Position numbers and translations under genes: made by a program
Notes under the pieces: model-generated
Seen by the model: only the letters and a program-made list of their open reading frames with translations
What the model was told of the DNA's origin: nothing
Database searches by the model: none
NCBI GenBank assembly: GCA_963711945.1
Contig: CAVQGB010000006.1
Coordinates: 12,128 to 76,127 of the forward strand
Direction: 5' to 3'
Source of the DNA: an uncultured Verrucomicrobiae bacterium
Lineage (GTDB): Bacteria; Verrucomicrobiota; Verrucomicrobiia; Limisphaerales; UBA11358
Length of the DNA stretch: 64,000 nucleotides
Part shown: positions 23,311-55,157 of the stretch, piece after piece
How positions within the stretch are numbered: the stretch's first letter is position 1
How the letters are laid out: the number at the start of each line of letters is the position of its first letter

Positions 23311-25344
23311 ATGACACCACTCGTCAGGCTTTGGATCTGGATTTCCGCCTTCGCCAGTCTCGCGGGCTGGACGTTGTCGGCGCTGGGGCAATTGAACCGA
23401 ATTGGCTACACGGTGGCGTTCGCGGTGTTCATCGCGGGCATGGCCCTTCTTTGGCTAAAATCACGCGAGAAACATCCAACAACGAACGTCCAACGTCGAA
23501 CATCCAAAGAAGCCGCCCGGATCGAAAACAGCGGATGTTGGATGTGCGTTGTTGGATGTGCGCTGTTCCCAAAACTGAAAAGACTTCTCCGCCGGTTCCG
23601 CCGGCCGTTGCCGCTCGGTTTCGCGGCGCTCGCCGTTTTGATTTTCATCGGCGGCGCGGTTTATCCCCCGGACAATTACACCGGACTGACCTACCGCGCC
23701 GGACGCGTGTTGCAGTGGCTTTCGCACGGCGGATGGTTCTGGATCAACACGGCCGATTTCCGGATGAACGACCGCGCCTGCGGCATTGAATGGTTGTCCG
23801 CGCCGGTGTTGCTGTTCACGCACTCCACGCGCGGATTGTTCCTGATAAATTATCTGCCTTTCCTGCTGCTGCCCGGCTTGATTTTCAGCGTCTTAACGGG
23901 GATGGGAGTCCGCGCGCGGGTGGCGTGGCACTGGATGTGGCTGCTGCCGACCGGCTATGTGTTCATCCTGCAGGCCGGCGGCAACGCGAATGACACGTTC
24001 CCCACGGTCTATGCGCTCGCGGCGGTGGACTTCGCCTTGCGCGCCCGGAAATCCCGTCACCTGTCACCCATTGCCTGCCGCTCGCATTTGTGGCACTCGA
24101 TGATGGCCGCCGCCCTGTTGACCGGCGCGAAGGCAACCAACCTGCCGCTGCTGCTGCCGTGGGCGATATTAATTTTCCCGCTCATCCCGCGGTTGCGCGG
24201 AAAAATGACGCTGACCGCGCTTGTCGTCCTGATCGCGGTGGCGGTTTCATTTCTGCCGACGGCGGTTTTGAACGTCCATTTTCTCGGAGACTGGTCGGGA
24301 CTGTCCATCGAACGCACCGGGATGAACATGCGGAATCCCCTCGTCGGCGTCTGGGGCAACGCCTTTCTGATACTGCTCGATAATTTCACGCCGCCGCTGT
24401 TTCCGTTCGCCGGCTGGTGGAACCAGCGCGCGATGGCCCTCCTACCCCATTTTATTGCCGCGCCGATGACCGCGAATTTCGAGCCGGGATTTTTGGGGCT
24501 GGGCGAACTGCCCACCGAGGACTGGACGGGTTTCGGTTTTGGATTGAGCGTGCTGCTGGCGGTTTCAATTGTTGCTGGTATCTTTCAACGCCGAACAACC
24601 AACATCCAACGACCAACATCCAATGAATTCACCGAACACCCGGTAAACGTTGGATGTTCGATGTTGGATGTTCGATGTTGGATGTTGCCACTGCTCCGTC
24701 TGGCCCCGTGGATTGCGCTGCTCGCCTTCTCCATGAAATCGGGCATCGTCACACCCGACCGGCTCATCGCGCCGTATTATCCGTTGCTCCTGCCGTTGCT
24801 GCTCGCCGGCGCGGGCCAGTCGCAAATCGTCCGCCGACGCTGGTGGCGGGCGCTGGCCGGCGGCGCCGTGATTCTGGCCCTGGTGGTCCTGGCGCTGTCG
24901 CCGGACCGCCCGCTTTGGCCGGCGCAAACCGTCTTGTCCCGGCTCGCCGCGCGGCATCCGGACCGGCCATTGATTTCCCGCGCGCTGAAGGTTTATGCCA
25001 TTTACGCGAAACGTTCGGATCCGCTGTCGGATGTCCGCGACCTGCTGCCCAAGGACGTCGCGGCGGTGGGTTTCATCGGCGCGGAGGATGACTGCGACAT
25101 TTCATTCTGGCTGCCGCTCGGCTCGCGGCGCGTGGAACATTTTGTGTTGAGCGACCCGCCGGAGCGTTTCCGGCAGGCGGGAATCGAATACGCCGTCGTG
25201 GGCGGGTTGAACCTGCAATTGCGCGGCACGACGCTCGACGCCTGGCTGCAAAAGACCGGCGCGCAACTCATCGCGGCCACCAACGCCACGCTGAAAGTTT
25301 CCGAAGGTCCGCAGCCATGGTTCGTCGTCCGGTTCAAACCGTGA
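23311..25344 (+). CDS. Polytopic membrane protein, possibly a GT-C-type glycosyltransferase, with in-frame repeat insertions
   Basis: 677 aa with many TM segments, PDNYTGLTYRAGRVLQWL loop, ANDTFP, GAKATNLPLL; the GT-C call is inference. Confidence 0.65.
   Translation: MTPLVRLWIWISAFASLAGWTLSALGQLNRIGYTVAFAVFIAGMALLWLKSREKHPTTNVQRRTSKEAARIENSGCWMCVVGCALFPKLKRLLRRFRRPLPLGFAALAVLIFIGGAVYPPDNYTGLTYRAGRVLQWLSHGGWFWINTADFRMNDRACGIEWLSAPVLLFTHSTRGLFLINYLPFLLLPGLIFSVLTGMGVRARVAWHWMWLLPTGYVFILQAGGNANDTFPTVYALAAVDFALRARKSRHLSPIACRSHLWHSMMAAALLTGAKATNLPLLLPWAILIFPLIPRLRGKMTLTALVVLIAVAVSFLPTAVLNVHFLGDWSGLSIERTGMNMRNPLVGVWGNAFLILLDNFTPPLFPFAGWWNQRAMALLPHFIAAPMTANFEPGFLGLGELPTEDWTGFGFGLSVLLAVSIVAGIFQRRTTNIQRPTSNEFTEHPVNVGCSMLDVRCWMLPLLRLAPWIALLAFSMKSGIVTPDRLIAPYYPLLLPLLLAGAGQSQIVRRRWWRALAGGAVILALVVLALSPDRPLWPAQTVLSRLAARHPDRPLISRALKVYAIYAKRSDPLSDVRDLLPKDVAAVGFIGAEDDCDISFWLPLGSRRVEHFVLSDPPERFRQAGIEYAVVGGLNLQLRGTTLDAWLQKTGAQLIAATNATLKVSEGPQPWFVVRFKP
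23470..23567. repeat. Heptamer-repeat inverted element (AACATCC family), in-frame in CDS
   Basis: AACATCCAACAACGAACGTCCAACGTCGAACATCCAA ... GGATGTTGGATGTGCGTTGTTGGATGT. Confidence 0.85.
24586..24687. repeat. Heptamer-repeat inverted element, in-frame in CDS
   Basis: CAACGCCGAACAACCAACATCCAACGACCAACATCCAA ... TTGGATGTTCGATGTTGGATGTTCGATGTTGGATGTTG. Confidence 0.88.
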
Positions 25345-36344: not shown

Positions 36345-36914
36345 GTGAGCGATTTTACGGTGATGCTGCAACAAATCGAACAGGGCGATGCCCGGGCGGC
36401 AAACCGGCTGCTGCCGCTGGTCTATGACGAACTGCGCCGGCTCGCCGCCATCAAAATGGCGCGCGAAAATCCCGGCCAGACGCTTCAGGCCACCGCTTTG
36501 GTCCACGAAGCCTGGCTGCGCCTCGGCGGCGATCAGCAGGCGTCGTGGCATAATCGCGCCCACTTTTTTGCCGCCGCCGCCGCCGCCATGCGCCGCATCC
36601 TGATTGACAATGCCCGGCGCAAAAACGCCGTGCGCCACGGCGGCCGGGCGGAGCGGGTGAACTTTGACCTCGACAACCTGGAACTGGCCGCCGGCATGGA
36701 CAACGATCAACTGCTGGCGTTGCATGAAGCGTTGGATGCGCTGGCGGCACACGATGCCGTCAAGGCCGAACTGGTGAAGCTGCGTTTTTTTGCCGGACTG
36801 ACGCTGGCCGAAGCCGCGAAAGTGCTCGATCTGTCCGAACCGACGGCGAAGCGTTACTGGGCTTACGCGCGGGCCTGGCTCTATCGGGAGATCAGGAAGA
36901 ACGTTGAACACTGA
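36345..36914 (+). CDS. ECF sigma factor (TIGR02999-type, kinase-associated)
   Basis: LLPLVYDELRRLA, GQTLQATALVHEAWLRL, RAHFFAAAAAAMRRILIDNARRK, LVKLRFFAGLT, WAYARAWL. Confidence 0.95.
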   Translation: MSDFTVMLQQIEQGDARAANRLLPLVYDELRRLAAIKMARENPGQTLQATALVHEAWLRLGGDQQASWHNRAHFFAAAAAAMRRILIDNARRKNAVRHGGRAERVNFDLDNLELAAGMDNDQLLALHEALDALAAHDAVKAELVKLRFFAGLTLAEAAKVLDLSEPTAKRYWAYARAWLYREIRKNVEH

Positions 36915-36987
36915 ACATCGAACGCCGAACGCCGATTAATTCACCGGCGACGTTGCTTTATCATTCGATGTTGGATGTTCGATGTTT
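36899..36987. repeat. Heptamer-repeat inverted element between convergent genes
   Basis: GAACGTTGAACACTGAACATCGAACGCCGAAC ... TTCGATGTTGGATGTTCGATGTT. Confidence 0.75.
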
Positions 36988-36997
36988 CCATTCGACG

Positions 36998-43394: not shown

Positions 43395-44429
43395 ATGCCC
43401 GACACAATCCTGAAACCCGACGAACTGGCGCCCGCCGCCGGGCTTATCCGCAACACGCTCGAACAGCTCGACCGCATTTTGCTGGGGCGCAGCGAGCTTC
43501 ACCGCCTCGTGCTCATTGGCATCTTGAGCCGCGGCCACGTGTTGCTGGAAGGCGTGCCCGGCCTTGGCAAGACCGCGCTCGTGCGCACCGTCGGTCAGAT
43601 TCTCAAGCTCGACTTCAAACGCATCCAGTTCACGCCCGACCTCATGCCGGGTGACGTGCTGGGCACGCACATCCTGCAGGAAACCAGTTCCGGCAAACGC
43701 GAATTGGTTTTCCAGCCCGGCCCGGTGTTCACGAATATCCTGCTCGCCGACGAAATCAACCGCGCGTCGCCGAAAACGCAATCGGCCATGCTCGAAACGA
43801 TGCAGGAAAATTCCGTGACGCTGCTCGGCACGACCCGCGCGCTGCCACAGCCGTTTTTCGTCCTGGCGAGCCAGAACCCGATTGAACTCGAAGGCACCTA
43901 TCCCTTGCCGGAAGCGCAACTGGATCGTTTTCTGTTTCGCCTCCTGTTCGACAACGTGGACACGGTGGTTCTCGACAAAATCATTTCCGAACGACGCCGC
44001 GGCGAACTGCCCGCTCCATCGTGGCGGATGGAGCACGCTGAATTGGAAACTCTCTTTCAAACCATGAGTCGGATTTATCTGCCGCGGCCGGTTTCGCGTT
44101 ACATCGCGCGGCTGGTTTCGGCCACGCATCCGGGCGCCAAGGAGGCCACCGAGCCGGTGAACCGCTACGTCAGCTACGGCGCGTCGCCGCGCGCAGCCAT
44201 CGCCATCGCCGAGGCGTCGCGGGGCCACGCGCTCGTCGCCGGACGGCCCAGTGTCGGTTTCGAGGACGTGAAGGCCGTCGCGCAGCCGGTTTTGAACCAC
44301 CGGCTGATTCTGAATTATCAGGCGCGCTTCGACCGGATGACCACGTCCAAGCTGGTGGCGGAGTTGCTGGGCCAGCTTGACGAAACCGGATTGAACCTGC
44401 CCAAGGACGTGGAATTGGCGGCGGCGTGA
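43395..44429 (+). CDS. moxR: MoxR-family AAA+ ATPase
   Basis: HVLLEGVPGLGKT, RIQFTPDLMPGD, LLADEINRASPKTQSAMLE, QNPIELEGTYPLPEAQLDRF, GASPRA. Confidence 0.96.
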   Translation: MPDTILKPDELAPAAGLIRNTLEQLDRILLGRSELHRLVLIGILSRGHVLLEGVPGLGKTALVRTVGQILKLDFKRIQFTPDLMPGDVLGTHILQETSSGKRELVFQPGPVFTNILLADEINRASPKTQSAMLETMQENSVTLLGTTRALPQPFFVLASQNPIELEGTYPLPEAQLDRFLFRLLFDNVDTVVLDKIISERRRGELPAPSWRMEHAELETLFQTMSRIYLPRPVSRYIARLVSATHPGAKEATEPVNRYVSYGASPRAAIAIAEASRGHALVAGRPSVGFEDVKAVAQPVLNHRLILNYQARFDRMTTSKLVAELLGQLDETGLNLPKDVELAAA

Positions 44430-44436
44430 AGTGGGA

Positions 44437-46734
44437 ATGAAGGAAGATCCAACATCGAACATTCAACGTCCAACATCCAATGTCAGACGGCCGGCGGCGG
44501 GCGGTTCATTGGATGTTCGAGGATGTTTGCTGGTTGTTGGATGTTTTCTTGCGTGCGCTTGCCGCGCGGACAACTTCGGCGACATCTCGGCCTCGGCGGA
44601 CGCGATGTATTCGGGCGGCACATTCCACGGTTACGCCGAAATCCGGGTGACTCTGGAAAACCGGTCCCCCGGCAGTTCCCATCGGGTGACGATTGTTTAT
44701 CCGGACAATTCCTATGGCGGTTACGGCAACAACATCAACCGCATTACCCGCACGGTGACGCTGGCGGCCGGCACACGCTCCGTGGTTTCGCTGCTCCAGC
44801 CGCCCCTTCCGATCAGCGGCGGCGGATCCATACGTGTGGAGGTGGACGACCGGCGCGAAGGCGAAATCCGCGCGCCCAATGCAAACAGCCATTGCAATAA
44901 TTATTCTCCCGGCAACATGGCGGCGACCGCGTTTATCAGCCGCAGTCTGGATTTTGACGCGGTCTTGCACGTCTTTGACGCGGGAAACGGCGCGTTCACG
45001 GCGTCGAAAGCGGCCGGCCCGCCGGATGCAAGCGGCACGGGTTATCAACCCAACTGTTGGATGCCAGATACCCGGCGAGGCGTCCAGACTAACTGGCTGG
45101 AACTCGATTACCCCAAACCGGAGACGGTGGATCGAATTGTCATTTACAACACACAGTCGCCTTCCTCACCGGGTTTTGTTGAATTGATTGGCACCAACGG
45201 AACCAGCCTGGCAAAAAGTTCAATGACTTCGGGCAGAAGCAGCTACGGCGGATCCTCCTGGACGACGGAATTTTTGATTTCCACCACCGGAGAACCGGTG
45301 AAAACCGTCCGGTTGAATTTCGGCAAAACGCCTCCCTCCAGCATTTGCATTGACGCGGTGCAAATCTCCGGCCCGTCCGGCAGCCAGTGGGCATCCGATG
45401 CGCGGGCCAGCAGCGACAACAGCGCATCGGCGGGTTCCTACCTGCCGGGCCGAACGGGAGTGAGTTCTGTCGCGGGATTGCGGGCCGAAGCGCCGATCTC
45501 GGAATGGAGCGAAAACTGGCTGCCCTACACGCCGTTCGACGCCATCGCGCTCCGGGCGGGTGATTTGTCCTCCGCGTCGCCGGCGACCGCCTCCGCACTC
45601 TGGAGTTACCTGCAGGCGGGTGGGAATATAATTGTGTTCGGAGGCGGCACACTGCCGGAGACGTGGCGGTCCGGCCCCCAAAAACCTCTGCGCAATGGAA
45701 TCGAATATGATCCGGGTTTGGGACACTGTTTTGTCTTCACGTCGGAGAATCCGTCGCAGCTCGACGCCACAACACTCAAAACGTTGCGGACCGCCTTGAC
45801 CGACTCGGCGCGTTACTGGCAAAACCTGCCGCGAGACAGCGGCGCGGCGAACGCCGCCCTGCCGGTCGTTGAGAATCTGAAGATTCCCACCCGCGGCATC
45901 GTGCTCATCATGCTGCTGTTCATCATCGCCATCGGCCCGGTGAACATCATCCTCCTGAACCGCCGCAAACGCCGCACCTGGATGCTGTGGACGATTCCGG
46001 CCATTTCCTTTGCCACCACGCTGCTCGTGTTTGCCTACAGCCTGCTTCGCGAAGGCGTGACTCCTGACACGCGCATCGCCGGATTGACGGTGCTCGACCA
46101 GGCCGGCCATCACGCGACAACGGTTGGAGCAACGGGATTTTATTGTCCGCTCACGCCGAGCGGCGGGTTGCAATTTGATCCCGGGACGGAGGCGTCCCCG
46201 CTCGTCAGCATCGGCTACGGCGGCGGCAATAATTCCGGCGCGTCGCGCGAGATGGACTGGTCGCAATCCCAACACTTAAGCCGCGGCTGGGTTTCCGCGC
46301 GCGTCCCGGCGCTCTTTCACCTGCGAAAGTCCGAGACGCGCCGGGAGCGCCTGCAAATCATCACTGGCAATGGCCAGGTGCAGGTTGTCAACGGCCTCGG
46401 CGTGCCGATCAAATCGCTCTGGTATGCCGACGCCGGAATGAATTTCTACCAGGCCGGCAATATTCCCGCCGGACAAAAGACCGTGATGATCTTGTCGAAG
46501 CAATCGCGCGCGGAAAAATCGGGCGCGGAAGGTTTGTTGCGCGACATTGGTTTCGCGGCACACACGGATCCGCTTGGCATTGACGCGGGAAAATATCTGC
46601 TGCCAAACACCTACATTGCCGTGCTGGATGGAAATCCGTTCATCGAAAACGCGCTGGGTTCCGCCGCCAGCCCGAAGCGCACCAAAAGCTCCACGGTGGT
46701 GTTTGGAACCCTTGCCGCAGCCGATATCCAATGA
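44437..46734 (+). CDS. Secreted/membrane protein of the MoxR-ABC operon
   Basis: Signal-like N-terminus, WLELDY (F5/8-like) insert, LWSYLQAGGNII, two TMs (IAIGPVNII; WTIPAISF); ATGA-coupled to the ABC ATPase. Confidence 0.8.
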   Translation: MKEDPTSNIQRPTSNVRRPAAGGSLDVRGCLLVVGCFLACACRADNFGDISASADAMYSGGTFHGYAEIRVTLENRSPGSSHRVTIVYPDNSYGGYGNNINRITRTVTLAAGTRSVVSLLQPPLPISGGGSIRVEVDDRREGEIRAPNANSHCNNYSPGNMAATAFISRSLDFDAVLHVFDAGNGAFTASKAAGPPDASGTGYQPNCWMPDTRRGVQTNWLELDYPKPETVDRIVIYNTQSPSSPGFVELIGTNGTSLAKSSMTSGRSSYGGSSWTTEFLISTTGEPVKTVRLNFGKTPPSSICIDAVQISGPSGSQWASDARASSDNSASAGSYLPGRTGVSSVAGLRAEAPISEWSENWLPYTPFDAIALRAGDLSSASPATASALWSYLQAGGNIIVFGGGTLPETWRSGPQKPLRNGIEYDPGLGHCFVFTSENPSQLDATTLKTLRTALTDSARYWQNLPRDSGAANAALPVVENLKIPTRGIVLIMLLFIIAIGPVNIILLNRRKRRTWMLWTIPAISFATTLLVFAYSLLREGVTPDTRIAGLTVLDQAGHHATTVGATGFYCPLTPSGGLQFDPGTEASPLVSIGYGGGNNSGASREMDWSQSQHLSRGWVSARVPALFHLRKSETRRERLQIITGNGQVQVVNGLGVPIKSLWYADAGMNFYQAGNIPAGQKTVMILSKQSRAEKSGAEGLLRDIGFAAHTDPLGIDAGKYLLPNTYIAVLDGNPFIENALGSAASPKRTKSSTVVFGTLAAADIQ
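44447..44546. repeat. Heptamer-repeat inverted element forming the N-terminus of the CDS
   Basis: ATCCAACATCGAACATTCAACGTCCAACATCCAATG ... CATTGGATGTTCGAGGATGTTTGCTGGTTGTTGGATGTT. Confidence 0.85.
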
Positions 46735-47663
46735 AAGTCCAGGTCAAGAATCTGCGAAAAGAGTTTGGCAAGACGGTTGCCGTGGACAACGTCTCGTTCT
46801 CGTTCGGCTCCGGCCACGTTTTTGGTTTTGTCGGCCCGAACGGCGCGGGCAAAACCACGACCATGCGCATCATTTCCACCATCGAGGAGCCGACCGCCGG
46901 TGACGTGGCCATCAACGGCGTTTCCGTCTGCGAAGAGCCGGAACTCGCGCGCCGCGCCGTGGGATACGTGCCGGACACCCTGCCCGCGCACGCGGACATC
47001 ACCGTTCACGAGTATCTGGATTTCTACGCGCGCGCCTACGGACTCAAGGGCAAAAAACGGACGCAGGCGGTCGGGGCCATTGAGGAATTCACCAATGTCT
47101 CCGGCATCCGTGAAAAACACCTCAAGGCGCTTTCAAAGGGGATGAAGCAGCGCGTCAGCCTCGGCCGCGCGCTCGTGCACGATCCCGACGTGCTTGTGCT
47201 CGACGAGCCGGCCGCCGGCCTCGACCCTCGCGCGCGGGTGGAACTGCGCGAATTGCTCGTGCTGCTGGCCGAGCGGAAAAAGGCGATCCTCATCAGTTCG
47301 CACATCCTCACCGAACTGACGGAAATCTGCAACGGCGTGGTCATCATTGAGCGGGGAAAAATTCTGGAAACCGGCACGATTGACGAGGTGTTGAAAAAAA
47401 GCGCGCCGCGCCGCACCGTCAGCGTGCGCCTGCTCGACGGTCAGGGCGTGCAACTGATCAAGGAGCTTCTTCAAATGCCGTTCGTCGAGAACGCGCGGGA
47501 TGTTGCCAACGAAATCCATTTTGAGATGACCGGCGACGAATCCGCCGCGTGCGACATCCTTGGACGGTTGGTCGCCGGGGGATACAAGGTGACTGAATTC
47601 CGCCAGACAAAGGCAAACCTGGAGGACATCTTCATGAATATCACGAAAGGAGGCGTGCAATGA
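46731..47663 (+). CDS. ABC transporter ATP-binding protein
   Basis: GPNGAGKTT, LSKGMKQR, LVLDEP, ISSHIL. Confidence 0.96.
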   Translation: MKVQVKNLRKEFGKTVAVDNVSFSFGSGHVFGFVGPNGAGKTTTMRIISTIEEPTAGDVAINGVSVCEEPELARRAVGYVPDTLPAHADITVHEYLDFYARAYGLKGKKRTQAVGAIEEFTNVSGIREKHLKALSKGMKQRVSLGRALVHDPDVLVLDEPAAGLDPRARVELRELLVLLAERKKAILISSHILTELTEICNGVVIIERGKILETGTIDEVLKKSAPRRTVSVRLLDGQGVQLIKELLQMPFVENARDVANEIHFEMTGDESAACDILGRLVAGGYKVTEFRQTKANLEDIFMNITKGGVQ

Positions 47664-47800
47664 ACCCATCCGGCGAAACATTCAACATTCAACAATCAAC
47701 GCCGAACATCGAAGGAAACGGCTGCGCCGCGGCTTTTCCGGTTGAATGTAGGGCGTTGATTGTTGAATGTTCGATGTTTCCCCGAATTCCTCCGCCATGA
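47660..47800 (+). repeat. Heptamer-repeat hairpin (47677-47779) inside a 46-aa mini-ORF coupled by ATGA overlaps at both ends
   Basis: AAGGAGG SD, then ATG 47660 (overlaps stop 47661-47663), MNPSGETFNIQQSTPNIEG...PRIPPP, TGA 47798-47800 (overlaps ATG 47797). Confidence 0.8.
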
Positions 47801-49317
47801 ACGCAAGACTTTCCAGCCTCAAATCCCACTTCGCCAACTGGCGCCATTGGGAGTTGAATCCCATCGTCATCAAGGAACTGCGGCAGGCCGTCCGCAGTTG
47901 GGCGGTCACGGGCATGTTGCTGCTTTTCCTGACCGTGCTGTTCATCGCGTCAGTGTCTTTCCTCGTTTCGCAAAGTATTAATGTGAACGCGAATTTGGGA
48001 TTGGGCAGCTCGATGTTTTCGACGTTCGCGACCATTCTGGGCGGCGCGAGCATCTTCTTCATTCCGCTTTATGTCGGAGTCCGCCTGGCGGTGGAACGGC
48101 AGGAAAACAACCCCGATCTGCTCTACGTCACCACGCTGTCTCCCGCCCGCATCATCCGCGGGAAATTCTACTGCGGCGCCTACATGACCCTGCTGTTCTT
48201 CAGCGCGGTCATGCCGTTCATGGCGTTTGCCAACCTGTTGCGCGGGGTGGATTTACCGACGGAATTCTTCATTTTATGTTTCCTGTTCCTCGTGGTGTGT
48301 GCGACGAACATGATTTCCATTTTTCTGGCGTGCATCCCGGCAAGTCGGCCCTTCAAAATTCTCCTGGCTCTCGGCGGGTGTTTCGTCTCGTTTTGGATCA
48401 TCGGCGCGCTGGTGGAGCTTTCGTATGAAATGCTGCGGTCCGGCGTCGGCACAATGATGGCAGGGCGTGATTTTTGGATCGGCACTGTCACCGTCCTCGG
48501 CATCGGCGCGGCGGTCCTTGGCTTGTTTTACATCCTGTCGGTGGCGCTCATTTCGCCGGCGTCGGCCAACCGCGCGCTGCCGGTCCGCATCTACATCACC
48601 CTCATATGGCTGCTGGGATTGATCTTGTGCGTCGGCTGGGTGGTGCAGACGGGAGAGGGCGCCTTGATGTTTGCGTGGCTGTATCCAACCTTCGCCCTGA
48701 TGATGTTGGCGTTGCTGGTGACCGTCAGTAATTCCGACCAGATCAGCCTGCGTGTTCGATGGCGCATCCCTATTTCCGGGTTCCGGCGCATTTTTGCGTT
48801 TGTCTTTTTCAACGGGGCGGCGGGCGGTCTCATCTGGATTGGAATCATCCTGGTCCTGACAGGCTTCGCAACCCGGACAGTCATGGACCGGTTCCCGTCA
48901 ACCGCGTCCGTGGCGTCCTTCGAGGTCGGACCATGGTTCATCACCATATCCGCGTATGCCTTTGCTTATGCGCTGTCCGCGCTGTTCATCCACCGGCAAT
49001 TTCTGCCAAAGCGCCCGCCGAAACTTGCGGGCCTGATTGCGATTCTCATCCCCAGCATGATGGCTCTGGTGCCCAGCGCCGTGATGTTTTTTCTAAACCG
49101 TCTCTCATGGAATTCCCTTGAAGGCCTGCAGCTCGGCAACGTCTTCAACCTGCTGGCCCTTCGCGAGGATTATCAGCGCGATTTCCACATGTATTTCGCC
49201 GGCGCCTGGCTGATGGTCATGGTGGGGCTCAATGCCAGATGGTTTTTAAGACAGGTGAACAATTTTCATCCTCCCATCCGCGTCGTGCCCGGCAATTCAC
49301 CGCCCATTTTGAAATAA
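47797..49317 (+). CDS. ABC transporter permease
   Basis: NPIVIKELRQAVRS, ERQENNPDLLYVTTLSPARIIRGK, many TM segments. Confidence 0.88.
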   Translation: MNARLSSLKSHFANWRHWELNPIVIKELRQAVRSWAVTGMLLLFLTVLFIASVSFLVSQSINVNANLGLGSSMFSTFATILGGASIFFIPLYVGVRLAVERQENNPDLLYVTTLSPARIIRGKFYCGAYMTLLFFSAVMPFMAFANLLRGVDLPTEFFILCFLFLVVCATNMISIFLACIPASRPFKILLALGGCFVSFWIIGALVELSYEMLRSGVGTMMAGRDFWIGTVTVLGIGAAVLGLFYILSVALISPASANRALPVRIYITLIWLLGLILCVGWVVQTGEGALMFAWLYPTFALMMLALLVTVSNSDQISLRVRWRIPISGFRRIFAFVFFNGAAGGLIWIGIILVLTGFATRTVMDRFPSTASVASFEVGPWFITISAYAFAYALSALFIHRQFLPKRPPKLAGLIAILIPSMMALVPSAVMFFLNRLSWNSLEGLQLGNVFNLLALREDYQRDFHMYFAGAWLMVMVGLNARWFLRQVNNFHPPIRVVPGNSPPILK

Positions 49318-49326
49318 GTTTATCCC

Positions 49327-50194
49327 ATGGATTCCGTCCTCCGACAGGCCCTGCGCGACGGCGAACAGCTCGGCGCCCGCTACGCGCTCCAGATCCCGCA
49401 AGTCGCCGCCAGCGGCTGGACCGGCTCGCGTTCGGGACGGCGCGCCGGCAGCTCGATTGATTTTCAGGACTACCGCGAATACCAGCCCGGCGACGACCTG
49501 CGCTTCATTGACTGGGGCATTTACGCGCGCACCGACCGGCTCACGGTGAAATTGTTCCGCGAAGAAGTCACGCCGCACCTGGATTTGATCCTCGACGGCT
49601 CGCGCTCGATGAATCTGGAAAACACGGCGAAGTCAAATGCCGTTGCCCGCCTTGCCGCGCTGCTCGCCACTTCCGCCGCCAACGCCCAATGCACCCAGGC
49701 CGTCTGGCTTTCCGGCGAAGGCTTCCAGCGGCTCCCGAACGACGCGCTTCCGCCGTCCGCGTGGGACAAACTTGAACTGGACAGCCGGCGGACACCGGAA
49801 CAATCTCTTGCAATCCTTCCGCCCAAATTCCGCCGGCTCGGCGTGCGGGTGCTCGTCAGCGATTTGCTCTGGCCCGGAGAGCCGCTCGCACTGTTGCGCC
49901 GCCTGCGGGACGGCGCGGCGGCTTTGTTTGTCATTCAATTGCTGGGCGCGTGAGGATGCAAGCCCGCCGGAGCACGGCAACCTGCGAGTCGTGGACAGTG
50001 AAACCGGCGACGAGAGCGAAATCTACATTGATTCGAGCGTGGCCCGGCAATACGCCGAAAATCTCGCGCAATTGCAGCAGGCGTGGAACGACGCCTGCCG
50101 CCAGTGCGGAGCACAGATGACCACGATTGTCGCCGAAGACTTGGAAAAATCGCTGGATGAATTGCAGGCAATTCAACTGCTGACACCCATTTGA
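49327..50194 (+). CDS. DUF58 domain protein (frameshift near 49945)
   Basis: GSSIDFQDYREYQPGDDLRFIDW, ILDGSRSM, LVSDLL; LRVVDSETG in the second frame. Confidence 0.9.
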
Positions 50195-50198
50195 AGCA

Positions 50199-50465
50199 AT
50201 GAAGAAACATTCAACATTCAACATTCAACGCCGGAAATCCAATGAGCCGCGGGTGGCACAGGCCTCCGGCCTGTGGTTTCGGGCGTCGCGCCCGAAACCG
50301 TTGGCGGGCGAACGACTGTTCCACCCTTGTCCGTCCGCCAGGTGTTTAGCTCTCGCGACAAAATTCGGCGTGACGCCGAATTTAACGGGCGCGACGCCCG
50401 TTCCACCCGCCGCATTGGATGTTGAATGTTCGCTGTTGAATGTTGAATGTTTTCCGTCTGAATGA
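50199..50465 (+). repeat. Heptamer hairpin (50205-50452) with a nested GGTGG REP-like element (50249-50410) inside an 88-aa coupled mini-ORF
   Basis: AACATTCAACATTCAACATTCAAC...GTTGAATGTTCGCTGTTGAATGTTGAATGTT; inner GCGGGTGGCACAGGCCTCCGGCCTGTG...CGGGCGCGACGCCCGTTCCACCCGC. The ORF starts 4 nt after the DUF58 stop and ends in an ATGA overlap with ATG 50462. Confidence 0.82.
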
Positions 50466-52213
50466 TTCCGTTCCTCACTTATCCGCTCGCCCTGATCGCG
50501 CTCGCCACCGTGCCGGCGCTCGCAGCGATTTATATTTTGCGGAATCGCTTTCGCCGCCGCACCGTTTCCAGTCTGGTTTTGTGGCGCTTTCATGTCCAAT
50601 CCAAATCCGGAGGCGCGAAAATCCACCGGCTGCAACTGCCGCTGCTGTTCTTTCTGGAACTTCTCGCGCTCCTATTGCTCGCCGCCGCCGCCGCCGGACC
50701 GCGCTGGAAACTGCCGCAATCCACGCGCCCGCTCATCGTCGTTCTCGATGATTCCTTTTCCATGCGCGCCGTGAGCGGCGGCAGTTCCGCGCGGGACCGC
50801 GCCCGGGCTTTTCTCGAAAAACTGTTCAGCGCCCAGCCGCCGCCCTCCACAAAGCTCATCCTGGCGGGAACGGAAGTCCATTCGCTCGGGTCGGCGGTCA
50901 AAAGCGGATCGCAGGTGGACGAACTGCTGCGCCAGTGGAACTGCTGGTCGCCGGATGCGGCGCTGGATCCCGCCATCACCCTCGCCGCCGAACTGGGCCG
51001 GCAACAGGCGAATATTCTGGTTCTGACCGACCACAAGCCCGCGCTGGAAAAAATTTCCAACAACCGCCTGGAATGGCACGCCTTCGGCGAGCCGTCGGAC
51101 AATTTCGCCATCGTCAACGCGTCGCGAACGGCGTTTGGCGATCAGGACCGCTGCCTGCTGGAAGTCGCCAACTTTTCCAGCGAGGCGCGCGCGACAAAAC
51201 TCCTGGTTCAGGCCGGCTCAAACACGGTGCAGAGTTCGCCGGTCTCGCCCGGCGCGCGCGGGAGCGAGCGGTTCGTTTTCAACATTCCGGCGTCCGCGCC
51301 GGAATTGCGTGTTACGCTCGCCGCCGACGCGCTGGACGTGGACAACGGAGCGCAATTGCTGCCGCCCTTGCGCAAACGCGTCCGGGTGCAGGTCGCCCTG
51401 GCCGATGAAAATTTGAGCGCGCTCGCCAATCGCACGCTGGACGCGACCGGATTGCGCGCCGCCATCTCGCAGGATCCCGAACTCGTCATCCACGAAACAG
51501 ACGCGCCCGCCGGCAGCAATTCATGGACCCTGCGCTGGACGGCATCCGGCGGGACCAACGCGTTCACCGGTCCTTTTGTAGTGGACACTTCGCATCCGCT
51601 CGCAAGGGGCGTTGCGCTCGAAGGGGTCGTCTGGGCTGGCGCGGCGGCCACCAATTCGCCCGGTGACGTGCCGGTGGTTCTCGCCGGAAACACGCCGCTG
51701 CTGTCCGCGCGCGAAGACGTGTTTGGCCGCCGTCACCTCACGTTGAATTTCAACCCCGAACTGTCCACGCTGCAAAACACGCCGGACTGGCCGGTTTTAT
51801 TTTGGAATCTTCTCCAATGGCGCGCCGCCGAAACGCCCGGCCTCAAGGAAAGCAACGCGCGCCTCGGCGAGGAGGTGATTCTCAAAACCGCGGGCGAATC
51901 CGTGAATGTCCGGCAGCCGGATGGAACTCTGAAAATTTTCCCCAAAACCGGCGGCGAACTCGCCATTGAAACGCCGGTCCCGGGCATTTACTCCGTCGCG
52001 CTGGGATCGTCCACAAACTCTTTTGCGGTGAATCCGCTCGCCGCCGATGAATCCGATTTGTCGGCGTGCGCCAGCGGGCACTGGGGCGCGTGGGGCGAAG
52101 CCGCCGAGGTCCGGCTGGAGGAAGCTTCCACCGTCTGGATTTTCGGGCTGCTGGCGCTGGCGTTGCTGGCGGCGCATTTGTATCTGGTGGCAGCGGCGAA
52201 AGGATCGAAATAA
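50462..52213 (+). CDS. BatA and vWA domain protein
   Basis: FLTYPLALIAL...IYILRNRFRRRTVSSLVLW (BatA), IVVLDDSFSM (MIDAS), LVLTD, C-terminal TM. Confidence 0.9.
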   Translation: MIPFLTYPLALIALATVPALAAIYILRNRFRRRTVSSLVLWRFHVQSKSGGAKIHRLQLPLLFFLELLALLLLAAAAAGPRWKLPQSTRPLIVVLDDSFSMRAVSGGSSARDRARAFLEKLFSAQPPPSTKLILAGTEVHSLGSAVKSGSQVDELLRQWNCWSPDAALDPAITLAAELGRQQANILVLTDHKPALEKISNNRLEWHAFGEPSDNFAIVNASRTAFGDQDRCLLEVANFSSEARATKLLVQAGSNTVQSSPVSPGARGSERFVFNIPASAPELRVTLAADALDVDNGAQLLPPLRKRVRVQVALADENLSALANRTLDATGLRAAISQDPELVIHETDAPAGSNSWTLRWTASGGTNAFTGPFVVDTSHPLARGVALEGVVWAGAAATNSPGDVPVVLAGNTPLLSAREDVFGRRHLTLNFNPELSTLQNTPDWPVLFWNLLQWRAAETPGLKESNARLGEEVILKTAGESVNVRQPDGTLKIFPKTGGELAIETPVPGIYSVALGSSTNSFAVNPLAADESDLSACASGHWGAWGEAAEVRLEEASTVWIFGLLALALLAAHLYLVAAAKGSK

Positions 52214-52215
52214 AA

Positions 52216-52320
52216 ATGAAGAAACATTCAACTTTCACCATTCAACGCTCAACACCCAATGCTTGCACGACAGAAGCGTCTTCCCTTCGATGTTCGATAT
52301 TTCCCAATCCGCAATGCTGA
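52216..52320 (+). repeat. Degenerate heptamer hairpin inside a 34-aa coupled mini-ORF
   Basis: ATG 52216 (2 nt after stop 52213), MKKHSTFTIQRSTPNACTTEASSLRCSIFPNPQC, TGA ending 52320 overlapping ATG 52314. Confidence 0.7.
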
Positions 52321-55157
52321 CCCTCTTCCAACCCGTCTGGCTCCTGCTGCTGGTCCCGATGGCGGCGGCCTGGTTTGCGTGGCCGCTGCCGAATCGCGGC
52401 CTGCAAATGTTGCGGGCGTTTGTGTTGGTCTTCGTCGTTCTGGCGCTGGCGCAGCTTGCCGTCAAATTGCCGGACCGCTCCGGCACCGTCATCGTCGTCG
52501 CCGACCGCAGCGAATCCATGCCCCCAAAATCCGATGCCTCCGAGAAGGAAATCATCGGCCTGCTGCACAAGGCGATGGGGCCGCGCGACCAGCTTGGCGT
52601 GGTTTCGTTTGGACGCGAAGCCGTCGTTGAACAATCTCCCGGGCGCGGCGAATTCGCCGGGTTCACCGGACAGGTCGGCGCGGATCATTCGAGCTTGAAC
52701 GACGCCGTTGAATCCGCGTTGGCGCTGATTCCGCCGGATGGCGGCGGACGCATTCTGGTCCTGTCCGATGGCAAATGGACGGGCAAAGACCCCGCCGCCG
52801 CCGCCGCGCGCGCCGCCGGTCGCGGGGTGGCGGTGGATTACCGGTTGATCACGCGCCCGCAGGTCAACGACGTGGCCATTCAAAGTTTTCTCACCCCGCA
52901 GTCGGTGTTGCCCGGTCAGGCGTTTGTGTTGAGCGCGTGGGTTCAGTCGCCGGCGGACCAGGAAATTCAATACCAGCTCCGGCGCGGCGATGATATCATT
53001 TCATCCGGCAGCAAGCCGGTTTCCGCCGGACTGTCGCGGCTGATGTTCCGCGACCGCGCAACGTCGGCGGGCGTCAATGAATACACCGTCACGATTCAGG
53101 GGCCGAAGGATGATCCGATACCTGAAAACAATTCCGCGCGGGCGCTGGTCGGTGTGGAAGGCTCGCGACCGGTGCTGGTGGTTTCGGCGGCGGGCGAAAA
53201 TTCGGGCCTCGTGAAGCTGCTGCGGGCGGGCCACGTCGAGGTCTCGGGCCGGACAGCCGTGCAATGCCGGTGGTCGCTCGAAGAACTTTCCCAATTCTCC
53301 GCCGTGCTGATCGAAAACGTCCCCGCGGGCGACATCGGCATGAGCGGCATGGAAACGATTGCGTCCTGGGTCGAGGAAACGGGCAGCGGACTGGCGATGA
53401 CCGGCGGGCAGAAGTCCTACGGACCGGGCGGCTACTTCAAGTCGCCGCTGGAGCGCGTCATGCCGGTCTCGATGGAAATGCGCCGCGAACACCGCAAGTT
53501 GAGCGTCGCGGTCGTCGTCGCGCTGGACCGTTCGGGCAGCATGGCGATGCCGGCGGGCGGCGGGCAGAAAAAAATTGACCTCGCCGACCTGGGCACGGTG
53601 CAGGTGCTGGATTTGCTGTCGCCGATGGACGAAATCGGCGTGTTCGCCGTGGATACGACGCCGCATGAAATCGTGCCGCTGGACACGGTCGAACACAACC
53701 AGGCCTATCGCGGAAAAATTCTGGCGATTGATTCGATGGGCGGCGGCATTTACATCTATGAAGCGCTCGTGGCTTCGGCGCGGATGATTTCCACCGCAAA
53801 GGCGCAGACGAAACACATCATCCTGTTCGCCGACGCCTCGGATTCCGAGCAGTCCATGCACTACGAGGACATCGTGGACAAGCTTCGCCGGGCCGATGTC
53901 ACCGTCAGCGTCGTTGGCCTCGGCACGGACCACGACGTGGACGCGAATTTGCTCAAGGACATCGCGCGGCGCGGCGGCGGCGATTGTTATTTCAGCGACA
54001 ACCCGGATGAAATTCCGCGCATCTTCGCGCAGGACACCTTCACCATCGCTCGCAGCACGTTCGTGGATCAACCGACGCCGTTCTCGGTTACGGCGGGATA
54101 TTCATTGCTCGGCGCGCCGCCGGCCTCCGCGCCGCCGCCGTTGGGCGGCTACAATTTGTGCTACCTCCGCCCGCGGGCGAATCTCGCCGCCGTGACGGGC
54201 GATGAATACCAGGCGCCGGTAGTGGCATCGTGGAACGCGGGCAATGGCCGCGTGCTCTGTTTCCTGGGCGAGGCGGATGGAAAATTCAGCGGCGACTTTG
54301 CGAGGTGGAACCAGGCCGGGGAATTTTACTCCACCGTCGCGCGCTGGGTTGCCGGCAAACGCCAGCCGCTGCCGGACGACATGCTGTTGACGCAGGAAAT
54401 TCGCGACGGCACCTGCTTTGTGCAACTTCACCTGGATCCGGCGCGCAAGGCCGAACCGTTCTCCGCGTTGCCGCGGGTGCGGATTTTGCACGGTTTGCCC
54501 GGCGCCACGCCGGGGAAGGAATCGGACACGCTGCAATGGAAGAACGCCGACCTGTTGGAATCGGCCATTCCGGTTGCCGGCCGCGAAACAGTTTTGAACA
54601 CGGTGGAAATTTCCGGCCAGCAGCCGGTCACCCTGCCGCCGGTGTGTCTGCCCTATTCGCCGGAGTTTGCCCCCGACCAGCCCAATCGCGGCGAATCGGC
54701 GCTCGCCCGCATTGCCGTCACGACCGGCGGCAGGGAGCGCGCCGAGATTCCAAAAGTCTGGAGCGAACTGCCGCTCGTTTCGCGCTACGTTGAACTCGCG
54801 CCGTGGCTGCTCGTGACGGCGGCGATTCTGTTCCTGCTGGAAATTTTTGAGCGGCGCACGGGCTGGGTCTCCCGATTTTTCCTGCGCAAAACCATGGTTG
54901 CGGATGCTGAAACAAACGAGCCGGGTCCGTCGAGCATTGCATCCGCAAAACTGCGTCGCTTTATATTGTTTCCAAAAATCTTCCGCCGTGGGAATTCCCG
55001 TTCACCGGCCAAAACGCCAACCGGCGCGCCGGCATCGCAGCCGGCAATTGAATCAAAGCCCTTGCCGGTCGGGACAAAAGAAATGGAATCCACCACGCTC
55101 GATGCCTTGCGCAAGGCGCGCAACCGCGCCTCCCGCCGTTCGGACAAGGAAATGTAA
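52314..55157 (+). CDS. Double vWA / glutamine-amidotransferase-like membrane protein
   Basis: VVADRSESM, LVLSDG, GLAMTGGQKSYGPGGY...LERVMPV, VALDRSGSM, IILFAD, WNAGNGRV, C-terminal TM. Confidence 0.9.
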   Translation: MLTLFQPVWLLLLVPMAAAWFAWPLPNRGLQMLRAFVLVFVVLALAQLAVKLPDRSGTVIVVADRSESMPPKSDASEKEIIGLLHKAMGPRDQLGVVSFGREAVVEQSPGRGEFAGFTGQVGADHSSLNDAVESALALIPPDGGGRILVLSDGKWTGKDPAAAAARAAGRGVAVDYRLITRPQVNDVAIQSFLTPQSVLPGQAFVLSAWVQSPADQEIQYQLRRGDDIISSGSKPVSAGLSRLMFRDRATSAGVNEYTVTIQGPKDDPIPENNSARALVGVEGSRPVLVVSAAGENSGLVKLLRAGHVEVSGRTAVQCRWSLEELSQFSAVLIENVPAGDIGMSGMETIASWVEETGSGLAMTGGQKSYGPGGYFKSPLERVMPVSMEMRREHRKLSVAVVVALDRSGSMAMPAGGGQKKIDLADLGTVQVLDLLSPMDEIGVFAVDTTPHEIVPLDTVEHNQAYRGKILAIDSMGGGIYIYEALVASARMISTAKAQTKHIILFADASDSEQSMHYEDIVDKLRRADVTVSVVGLGTDHDVDANLLKDIARRGGGDCYFSDNPDEIPRIFAQDTFTIARSTFVDQPTPFSVTAGYSLLGAPPASAPPPLGGYNLCYLRPRANLAAVTGDEYQAPVVASWNAGNGRVLCFLGEADGKFSGDFARWNQAGEFYSTVARWVAGKRQPLPDDMLLTQEIRDGTCFVQLHLDPARKAEPFSALPRVRILHGLPGATPGKESDTLQWKNADLLESAIPVAGRETVLNTVEISGQQPVTLPPVCLPYSPEFAPDQPNRGESALARIAVTTGGRERAEIPKVWSELPLVSRYVELAPWLLVTAAILFLLEIFERRTGWVSRFFLRKTMVADAETNEPGPSSIASAKLRRFILFPKIFRRGNSRSPAKTPTGAPASQPAIESKPLPVGTKEMESTTLDALRKARNRASRRSDKEM

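Follow-up and report, generated by a model that had tools for sequence, protein, structure and literature searches.

Heptamer-armed hairpins in the operon junctions of a soil Verrucomicrobium carry a selected reading frame and are probably tolerated remnants of gene cassettes

We analyzed a 64,000-nt stretch of DNA (the window; contig CAVQGB010000006.1, positions 12,128 to 76,127) from a soil Verrucomicrobium, in which an operon of the Bat/MoxR type carries hairpin elements built of tandem 7-nt repeats at its gene junctions. We found that the elements are insertions placed in stop/start junctions, that they have a start codon and an open frame specifically on the sense strand, and that this frame is conserved across species. 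We also found that they are linked to gene-carrying cassettes that resemble the intervening sequences (IVS) of rRNA, and that they are gene-less remnants of such cassettes. The feature is real and selected, and from its pattern we infer, with good support, that ribosomes relay across the insert. We consider it likely that the hairpins are gene-less cassette remnants at operon junctions that are tolerated by means of a ribosome relay through the selected frame.

The arms of the elements in the window consist of tandem AACATYS heptamers, and three of the four elements at junctions of the operon are long imperfect palindromes (Table 1). An earlier note, made from the letters of the window, had described mini open reading frames (mini-ORFs) bridging three junctions and a fourth copy fused to a gene. 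Its account of the first mini-ORF, between the ABC ATPase gene (abcA) and the permease gene (perm), is correct in length, in the AAGGAGG motif, in the ATGA at both ends and in the ATGAAC at both borders (47660 and 47797). The RNA hairpin of this element has a folding energy of -66.9 kcal/mol (z = -6.55 relative to shuffled sequences). The second mini-ORF also ends in ATGA and stays open through a nested repeat, as described; the arms of its element (50205-50249 and 50408-50452) are 45 nt long and 76% complementary, and the element folds with -57.5 kcal/mol (z = -2.61 relative to shuffles). At the third junction the 34-codon frame and its 7-nt overlap with the next gene were found, but the hairpin was not. 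The left arm is present (52219-52260), the right arm has decayed to about two units, there were no inverted repeats in 52200-52340, and the region folds with -18.1 kcal/mol (z = +1.19; 180 of 200 shuffles folded equally well or better). This element is a decayed half copy that is no longer a hairpin, and the frame from the ATG at 52216 is part of a longer listed ORF (52066..52320). The fourth copy is indeed in frame with the 767-aa ORF, and it makes up the N-terminal extension and signal-peptide region of a 765-aa exported protein. In relatives this protein has an ordinary signal peptide, and in one relative (G010) there is another in-frame copy of the same repeat family (family A) at the same junction.

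The strongest evidence is the frame-specific conservation across species. We compared three junctions between the genome that holds the window (G000; 4.37 Mb, 75% complete) and the genomes of relatives (other G-numbers): J1 (C1:87059 in G000; 29 loci), J2 (C5:380966; 30 loci) and J3 (C10:477728; 28 loci). A fourth junction, J4 (C1:160747), was compared in the pair with G046 alone. At J1, 15 loci are empty (CTGCGTTATGAATGAACC, an 8-nt overlap), 10 have a family-A copy, three have another heptamer hairpin made of ACGATTT units, and one could not be parsed. In the 10 species with a family-A copy, the native ATG and the new start are 119-143 nt apart and the loops cannot be aligned, yet the frame of the native ATG is open in all 10. 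This frame ends on ATGA or GTGA in seven species, on the TGA of ATGAGTGA in two whose length is out of phase by one base, and is fused in frame to the next gene in one. The lengths fall into three classes modulo 3, each with a fitting end; the TGA at +5 (ATGAGTGA) is kept by both class-1 species and lost in all seven class-2 species. The remaining frames served as controls: the other two sense frames were open in 3 and 2 of the 10 copies and the three antisense frames in 1, 4 and 3 (13/50 in total). At J2, the frame of each of the 10 family-A copies starts with an ATG 5-7 nt past the upstream stop and ends at +1 (TGATG, seven copies) or +4 (ATGA, three copies) on the next start, with 14/50 control frames open. 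The start-codon frame is thus open in 10/10 copies at each of these junctions, compared with 26-28% of the control frames. Six J2 copies from three other hairpin families have ends at -10 to +4.

One alternative is that the frames are open without selection, merely because the hairpins descended recently from a cassette with an arm-spanning ORF. The ORFs of full-length cassettes do read through both arms, and the arms are poor in stops. However, orthologous copies with many indels and unalignable loops keep the frame, as illustrated by the modulo-3 classes at J1 and by an indel pair at J2 (-2/+2) that compensates in the comparison with G046. Reading the G046 pairs by eye, we found that a relay or fusion was kept in five of the seven pairs in which G000 has one, with net length changes of 0, -6, -9 and +9 nt in four conserved pairs. 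Inheritance without selection is improbable in our judgment.

Comparison with relatives also shows that the elements are insertions. The operon is syntenic in six relatives, and its junctions are empty there. The abcA-perm junction is a single GTGCAATGA(A/G/C), that is, an ATGA stop/start overlap, in 6/6 relatives (5 species), and the empty form predicted for 47660, ...CAATGAAC..., is seen in relatives. The junction between the DUF58 gene and batA is GCATGATTCC or TAATGATT in 5/5 relatives, and that between batA and the next gene is TGAAATG, TAACATG or ATGA, also in 5/5. Two further junctions of G000 are each empty in 6/7 relatives. In the window, a 137-nt segment is bounded by GCAATGAAC and GCCATGAAC, and GC[A/C]ATGAAC occurs at 47657 and 47794. 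Exact 10-nt duplications of the flanks were found in two cases (CCGCCGTGAA in G055 and TTGATGAAAT at C5:380966), and 8/9 matches in two more. A target duplication of approximately 9-10 nt is likely for the cleanest cases; as a general rule, target-site duplication is unsupported over 60 elements (P = 0.47 and 0.21) and was set aside. Three public DNA sequencing runs yielded only short contigs of distant soil and rhizosphere relatives and other repeat copies, and none of them spans an empty site. A look for RNA sequencing runs that cover 44300-52500 yielded none.

There are 70 paired elements (both arms present) in G000, mostly 70-120 nt long. Of these, 60 are between co-directional genes, 5 between convergent genes, 1 between divergent genes and 4 within genes, compared with 76/12/12% for junctions genome-wide (P = 0.012). 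Typically, the upstream stop is 0-15 nt before the left arm and the next ATG is 5-25 nt past the right arm. Overall, there were 209 clusters of heptamer arms (sequences within 5 mismatches of a 21-mer) in the 4.37-Mb genome and 9 in a shuffled genome; 81 other matches are single arms, some of them spurious. A two-unit pattern occurs 170 times in G000 and is present in 16/24 sampled genomes of the genus and in 8/16 other genera of the order, and the reversed control pattern was found 0 times in all 41 genomes. The family is patchily distributed and behaves like mobile DNA. Its small, multi-copy build with terminal inverted repeats (70 paired copies; window arms 76-86% complementary) is that of a MITE (a miniature transposable element with inverted repeats). 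A transposase-coding autonomous partner with heptamer ends was not found; there were only four distant arm pairs, none recurrent, and the element that shares these arms contains a four-helix-bundle gene rather than a transposase (see below). Traits of repetitive extragenic palindromes (REP/REPIN) were lacking in the arms themselves: they are 30-45 nt of AACATYS units, and the GTAG/CGTC tag is absent.

These results bear on a second possibility, also raised in the earlier note, that the elements are dedicated regulatory relay units by which the host sets subunit ratios, attenuates, or directs mRNA processing through the hairpin and mini-ORF. In its favor, the hairpins are very stable and located in multi-subunit operons, and a run of T comes after some of the right ends. 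Against this, the same junctions are empty in most relatives (15/29 loci at J1, 10/30 at J2 and 16/28 at J3), one and the same position holds unrelated families of elements in different species, and the spread is patchy and like that of mobile DNA. In addition, there was no Rfam family at the gathering threshold; the best was a chance match to mir-181 (29.2 vs 45.5 bits). A regulatory role of this kind is unsupported, and we regard it as unlikely.

We used the antisense strand as an internal control for selection on the frame, because a palindrome reads alike on both strands. Genes were taken from our own dicodon caller (4051 genes). Among 60 co-directional elements, an ATG within -15 to +6 of the left end was found on the sense strand only in 33, on the antisense strand only in 5, on both in 12 and on neither in 10 (p = 4e-6). 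An ATG-started ORF through the palindrome was found on the sense strand only in 25, on the antisense strand only in 1, on both in 6 and on neither in 28 (two-sided binomial P ~8e-7). For 64 elements, a stop-free frame was present on the sense strand only in 24 and on the antisense strand only in 7 (p = 0.003). The number of stop triplets was similar on the two strands (2.68 sense vs 2.95 antisense), and the stops closed 1.75 frames on the sense strand compared with 2.14 on the antisense strand (P = 0.0125).

We also permuted the elements by swapping palindromes among junctions. The earlier note had suggested a genome-wide test of this kind, and bridging ORFs were more frequent than in these controls: a bridging frame ending within 6 nt of the next start was present at 8/34 junctions, compared with 2.65 expected (P = 0.0045), and at 11/34 compared with 4.27 expected if any start codon was allowed (P = 0.001). 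A start followed by read-through of the palindrome was present in 19/36 compared with 10.9 expected, and a second such count gave 24/36 compared with 17.2 expected; each was reached in 0/1000 permutations. Five of 34 elements in G000 end exactly in ATGA, with 1.35 expected.

These tests disfavor the reading that the short ORFs are a chance by-product of a stop-free AACATTC arm followed by a GAATGTT arm that often leaves one frame open. The left arm is stop-free in every frame by construction, and at least one open frame was present on the sense strand in 44/56 palindromes, very close to the 43.5 expected with stops in random frames. However, the antisense strand, which has the same build, had an open frame in only 30/56. 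The excess of sense-only cases in all three counts (24 to 7, 33 to 5 and 25 to 1), the permutation results (P = 0.0045, P = 0.001 and 0/1000) and the start-codon frame that is open in 10/10 species at two junctions all argue against chance, and we give this reading very little credence. That the mini-ORFs encode functional small proteins is hardly plausible either: the start codons are in good context and some fused copies give signal-peptide-like segments (44437), but all three heptamer phases are used, the peptides at one junction have in common only the repeat-coded NIQHSTF-type stretch with wholly different loops, and there was no Pfam match.

The origin of the frame is indicated by elements that still carry a gene. 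G000 has a four-helix-bundle gene (L185; C5:92.8-93.4 kb) that matches PF05635 and TIGR02436 (65.1 bits) and is enclosed by family-A arms of 40 nt, which are 80% complementary and lie 456 nt apart. Its 184-aa ORF starts no more than 8 nt from the end of the upstream gene, continues through the two arms and has its stop 7 nt ahead of the next ATG. The upstream gene, which is frameshifted in the assembly, we take from its translation to be ubiX-like. A second four-helix-bundle gene in G000 (L186) is flanked by CAGTCCA arms (36 nt, 86%), and the same arms form gene-less palindromes elsewhere. At J2, one relative (G013) has a 494-nt insert with a GxxExxY gene (TIGR04256, 154.5 bits) flanked by inverted arms of the CGCAGAG type. 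The ORF of this gene begins at a TAATG on the upstream stop and runs through both arms to an ATGA on the start of the following gene. Two repeat units of J2 hairpins, CGCAGAT and ACAGAAT, are also found around GxxExxY genes. In a scoring done without a shuffle control, the flanks of 18/22 GxxExxY genes from five relatives and of 4/4 four-helix-bundle genes in G000 had an inverted-repeat score of at least 18. Of the stops of 26 cassette ORFs, 13 are TGA, and 9 of these are part of ATGA. There was no match to PF13366 (GxxExxY) in G000, a 75% complete genome. Because the same arms flank a cargo gene with an ORF that spans the junction from the stop of the upstream gene to the start of the downstream one, we conclude that the hairpins are cassette remnants and that the relay ORF is the bridging ORF of the cassette itself, retained when the cargo was lost.

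GxxExxY genes also lie between inverted tandem arrays of 7-8-nt units outside the order, in 8/10 loci from other phyla that were found with a single Verrucomicrobial protein as query. Proteins 62-87% identical were found in Acidobacteriota, Planctomycetota, Chloroflexota, Bacteroidota, Desulfobacterota, Methylomirabilota and two archaeal metagenome-assembled genomes, a distribution that points to frequent horizontal transfer.

Genes of other kinds were also seen at these junctions. In G019, J2 (L147 1948-2577) has a 668-nt insert with a 209-aa lipoprotein-like ORF that starts at a TAAATG on the upstream stop, so that a whole gene is slotted into the same stop/start junction. In G056, J3 (L199 1973-2482) has a gene for an IS200-like Y1 transposase (REP-associated tyrosine transposase, RAYT; PF01797, 40.5 bits) between GC-rich, REP-like palindromes. 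This gene is itself a bridging ORF that opens at a GTGA on the upstream stop and closes 2 nt short of the next ATG, and the palindrome that flanks it is GC-rich and differs from the heptamer arms. There are 10 Y1_Tnp matches in G000, two of which have identical scores and are 2.6 kb apart (C1:53416-53751 and C1:56046-56381).

We propose the following sequence of events. A cassette consists of two inverted arrays of 7-nt repeats around a four-helix-bundle or GxxExxY gene, and it lodges in the stop/start junction of an operon. Its ORF extends from the stop of the upstream gene to the start of the downstream gene, in a bacterium nearly without Shine-Dalgarno (SD) sequences, so that the insert would be translated in relay and the operon would remain unbroken. 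Loss of the cargo would leave arms that pair with each other, forming a hairpin (-40 to -67 kcal/mol) immediately upstream of the next start. A copy would then persist only where a frame through the hairpin was opened by a start codon at the left border, either the duplicated native start codon or one at the end of the element. This frame would stop on or beside the next start (ATGA, TGATG or TAAATG), allowing termination-reinitiation, or would read in frame into the next protein. The cost avoided in this way may be blocked initiation, termination or cleavage at the hairpin.

Several properties of the genome are relevant to this proposal. The hairpins are stable genome-wide (median -41.5 kcal/mol, z = -5.5). 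SD-like motifs precede 13.8% of 2594 called starts, compared with 11.5% of random positions, and 7.9% of the 38 starts behind elements. Given this limited use of SD sequences, a start codon directly behind a strong hairpin would presumably be hard to reach from solution. An SD-based explanation was dropped because the genome hardly uses SD. For the idea put forward in the earlier note, that the element inserts at start codons and selection maintains the frame, there is evidence from empty sites, sense specificity and conservation; the ribosome relay itself we infer from them.

A number of observations weigh against the proposed relay or limit its generality. The result at J3 is mixed: eight short inserts gave three bridges and one fusion, with two ends at -17 and +20 and two that fall 31-33 nt early. 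Two bridges of G000 are closed in G046, as read by eye. The species compared at one junction are related, and 10/10 does not represent ten independent trials. In G000, no ORF that begins with ATG extends to the right arm in 14 of the 36 evaluable junction elements; when any start codon is allowed, this is the case in 6 of 36. RNA stability is equal on the sense and antisense strands (28 vs 28), so that the sense RNA structure itself is unmarked by selection. Flank duplications over all 60 junction elements are not above cross-pairs, and in the one Acidobacteriota cassette that was read the ORF does not run through the arms. Finally, our gene caller is crude (coding density only 76%), and the assembly has single-base errors, for example at 49947 in the DUF58 gene.

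The DUF58 gene is a single frame in relatives and is split at 49940-49991 in the window. The base at 49947 is absent from the contigs of two public sequencing runs, and the split is probably an assembly error. Beyond the operon, the window has one family-A copy in frame inside a 677-aa ORF without a Pfam match (flanking peptide ...AGIFQRRTTNIQRPTSNEF...CWMLPLLRL...) and another between convergent genes. The repeat nested in the second mini-ORF belongs to a GC-rich family of approximately 160 nt, with 26 BLAST matches in the genome at about 15 loci, and it is also present in the loops of other heptamer elements (C1:468232 and C10:359660). In G015, the junction between moxR and the gene of the exported protein has AACATCG palindromes that are part of a longer repeat unit whose flanks are conserved (ATGGAAATC... 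/ ...GGTTCAT). Repeats of this kind fill the junction over about 1 kb (L016), and units are also found at L019, L022, L031 and L038.

Table 1. Genes and repeat elements in the window, ordered by position.
Feature	Position (nt)	Strand	Description
Family-A copy	24599..24689	+	In frame inside 677-aa ORF 23311..25344, between hydrophobic stretches
Family-A copy	36900..36988	.	Between convergent genes; + strand: left border without start codon
MoxR ATPase gene	43395-44429	+	First in operon order
Exported 765-aa protein gene	start ATG 44437	+	Second in operon; within 767-aa ORF 44431..46734
Heptamer-armed palindrome	44437..44545	+	Fused in frame after ATG 44437; arms 44444-44482 / 44507-44545, 39 nt, 77% complementary
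ABC ATPase gene (abcA)	46731-47663	+	Third in operon
Left copy of duplicated junction, GCAATGAAC	47657..47665	+	ABC ATPase stop TGA 47661-47663 and mini-ORF ATG; ancestral AAGGAGG upstream
Relay mini-ORF, 46 codons	47660..47800	+	ATG start; ATGA overlap at both ends; AAGGAGG 7 nt upstream
Palindrome of AACATTC-type heptamers	47668..47787	+	Arms 47668-47709 / 47746-47787, 42 nt, 86% complementary
Right copy of duplicated junction, GCCATGAAC	47794..47802	+	Permease start ATG 47797 and mini-ORF stop TGA 47798-47800
Membrane protein / permease gene (perm)	47797-49317	+	Fourth in operon
DUF58 gene	49327..49953 and 49991..50194	+	Fifth in operon; frameshifted near 49947
Relay mini-ORF, 88 codons	50199..50465	+	Begins 5 nt past DUF58 stop; ends in ATGA on batA start 50462
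Nested palindrome, second repeat family	50246..50413	+	168 nt = 56 codons, in frame, within loop of heptamer element
BatA/vWA gene	50462-52213	+	Sixth in operon; BatA N-terminal domain begins at residue 1 of 50462 ORF
Mini-ORF, 34 codons, over decayed element	52216..52320	+	TGA 52318-52320 overlaps next-gene ATG 52314 by 7 nt
vWA protein gene	start ATG 52314	+	Seventh in operon

If the relay operates as proposed, selfish DNA occupies the coupled stop/start junction, where an operon is most sensitive, and is tolerated by means of a throw-away frame; the case for this is comparative and does not depend on a single example. It would extend to another phylum and another kind of element a principle known from mycobacterial interspersed repetitive units (MIRUs) and integron attC sites. 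It also connects the plentiful "palindromic repeats" with two families of small genes that are widespread and of unknown function, the four-helix-bundle/23S rRNA IVS protein and GxxExxY. For annotation, short ORFs and N-terminal extensions of this type are probably translated spacers and not genes, and downstream starts are to be sought behind the hairpin. Our searches for heptamer strings, for REP or MITE sequences with translational coupling and for GxxExxY or four-helix-bundle cassettes found no description of these elements in the literature covered, which did not include subscription journals.

The earlier note knew of no named class for the feature; named precedents exist in MIRUs and in the short ORFs of integron attC and attI sites. 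MIRUs insert at start codons, and the ORF inside them is coupled at a spacing of -4 (Supply et al. 1997, cited from the available text of PMC12548453). MIRUs and the present elements are both mobile repeats at start codons with -4 (ATGA) coupling, read as insertions with little effect on expression. The elements described here similarly lie at start codons inside operons (empty ATGA junctions; 60/70 co-directional), and their coupling is at -4 in the ATGA ends at 47798 and 50463, in 7/10 species at J1 and in 3/10 at J2, where the other 7 have TGATG. The likeness is functional only; the phylum differs, and it is for the present elements that frame conservation across species is shown. Long heptamer-array hairpins or gene-cassette remnants do not appear in the account of MIRUs in the available portion of PMC12548453.

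In integrons, the stem-loops of attC impede ribosomes, an effect that is relieved through termination-reinitiation by short ORFs (ORF-11 and one ORF of attC); ORF-11, ORF-17 and ORF-18 are the short ORFs named for attI1 (PMC8876359, in the part available). Here too, a palindromic stem-loop site between cistrons is crossed by a throw-away short ORF. The comparison concerns the mode of action only: an integrase, attI and a GTTRRRY core were not sought, and none was seen. The present elements are dispersed over the chromosome, whereas integron cassettes are arrayed.

The IVS of 23S rRNA have inverted-repeat stems. The protein of rRNA IVS is 23S_rRNA_IVP (PMC11270868, as far as its available text goes). 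IVS and the G000 cassette share the cargo family (PF05635 / TIGR02436) and the arrangement of a small gene between inverted arms. They differ in that classical IVS are in rRNA helices and are cut by RNase III, whereas the present copies are in junctions of protein-coding operons and appear to be translated in relay.

MITE ORFs can be fused in frame to genes, with some supplying signal peptides (Delihas, PMC2229807, from the accessible sections), and Rickettsia palindromic elements (RPE) are also mentioned in PMC3733652. Relay ORFs from stop to start between operon genes are absent from the available sections of these reviews. MITEs and RPE resemble the present elements in being stem-loop repeats of approximately 100 nt with contiguous ORFs and in-frame fusions, such as those at 44437 and 24599.

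The short tandemly repeated repetitive (STRR) sequences of cyanobacteria are heptamer repeats. Inverted heptamer arrays between same-direction genes have been reported in Xanthomonas (GGGAATC) and Nostoc (GGGGAYT) (Rehm et al., PMC4692102, in the text available). These arrays are alike in having tandem 7-nt units, often as inverted pairs, between same-direction genes and near the end of the upstream gene. They were studied as G-quadruplex formers with function unknown, and the available text reports no cargo genes or relay ORFs. It is conceivable, though we hold it only tentatively, that hairpins, relay ORFs and four-helix-bundle or GxxExxY genes belong to one cross-phylum class of "operon-riding" mobile cassettes, undescribed in print, of which the Xanthomonas and STRR arrays would be further examples. 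Such cassettes would home into stop/start junctions, be expressed purely through translational coupling within the host operon and leave selected relay hairpins after decay, with the GxxExxY nuclease or four-helix-bundle protein moving or maintaining the arms. What is new here, relative to these known systems, is that conservation across species is specific to the frame and that relay hairpins and four-helix-bundle/GxxExxY cassettes are tied directly within one genome.

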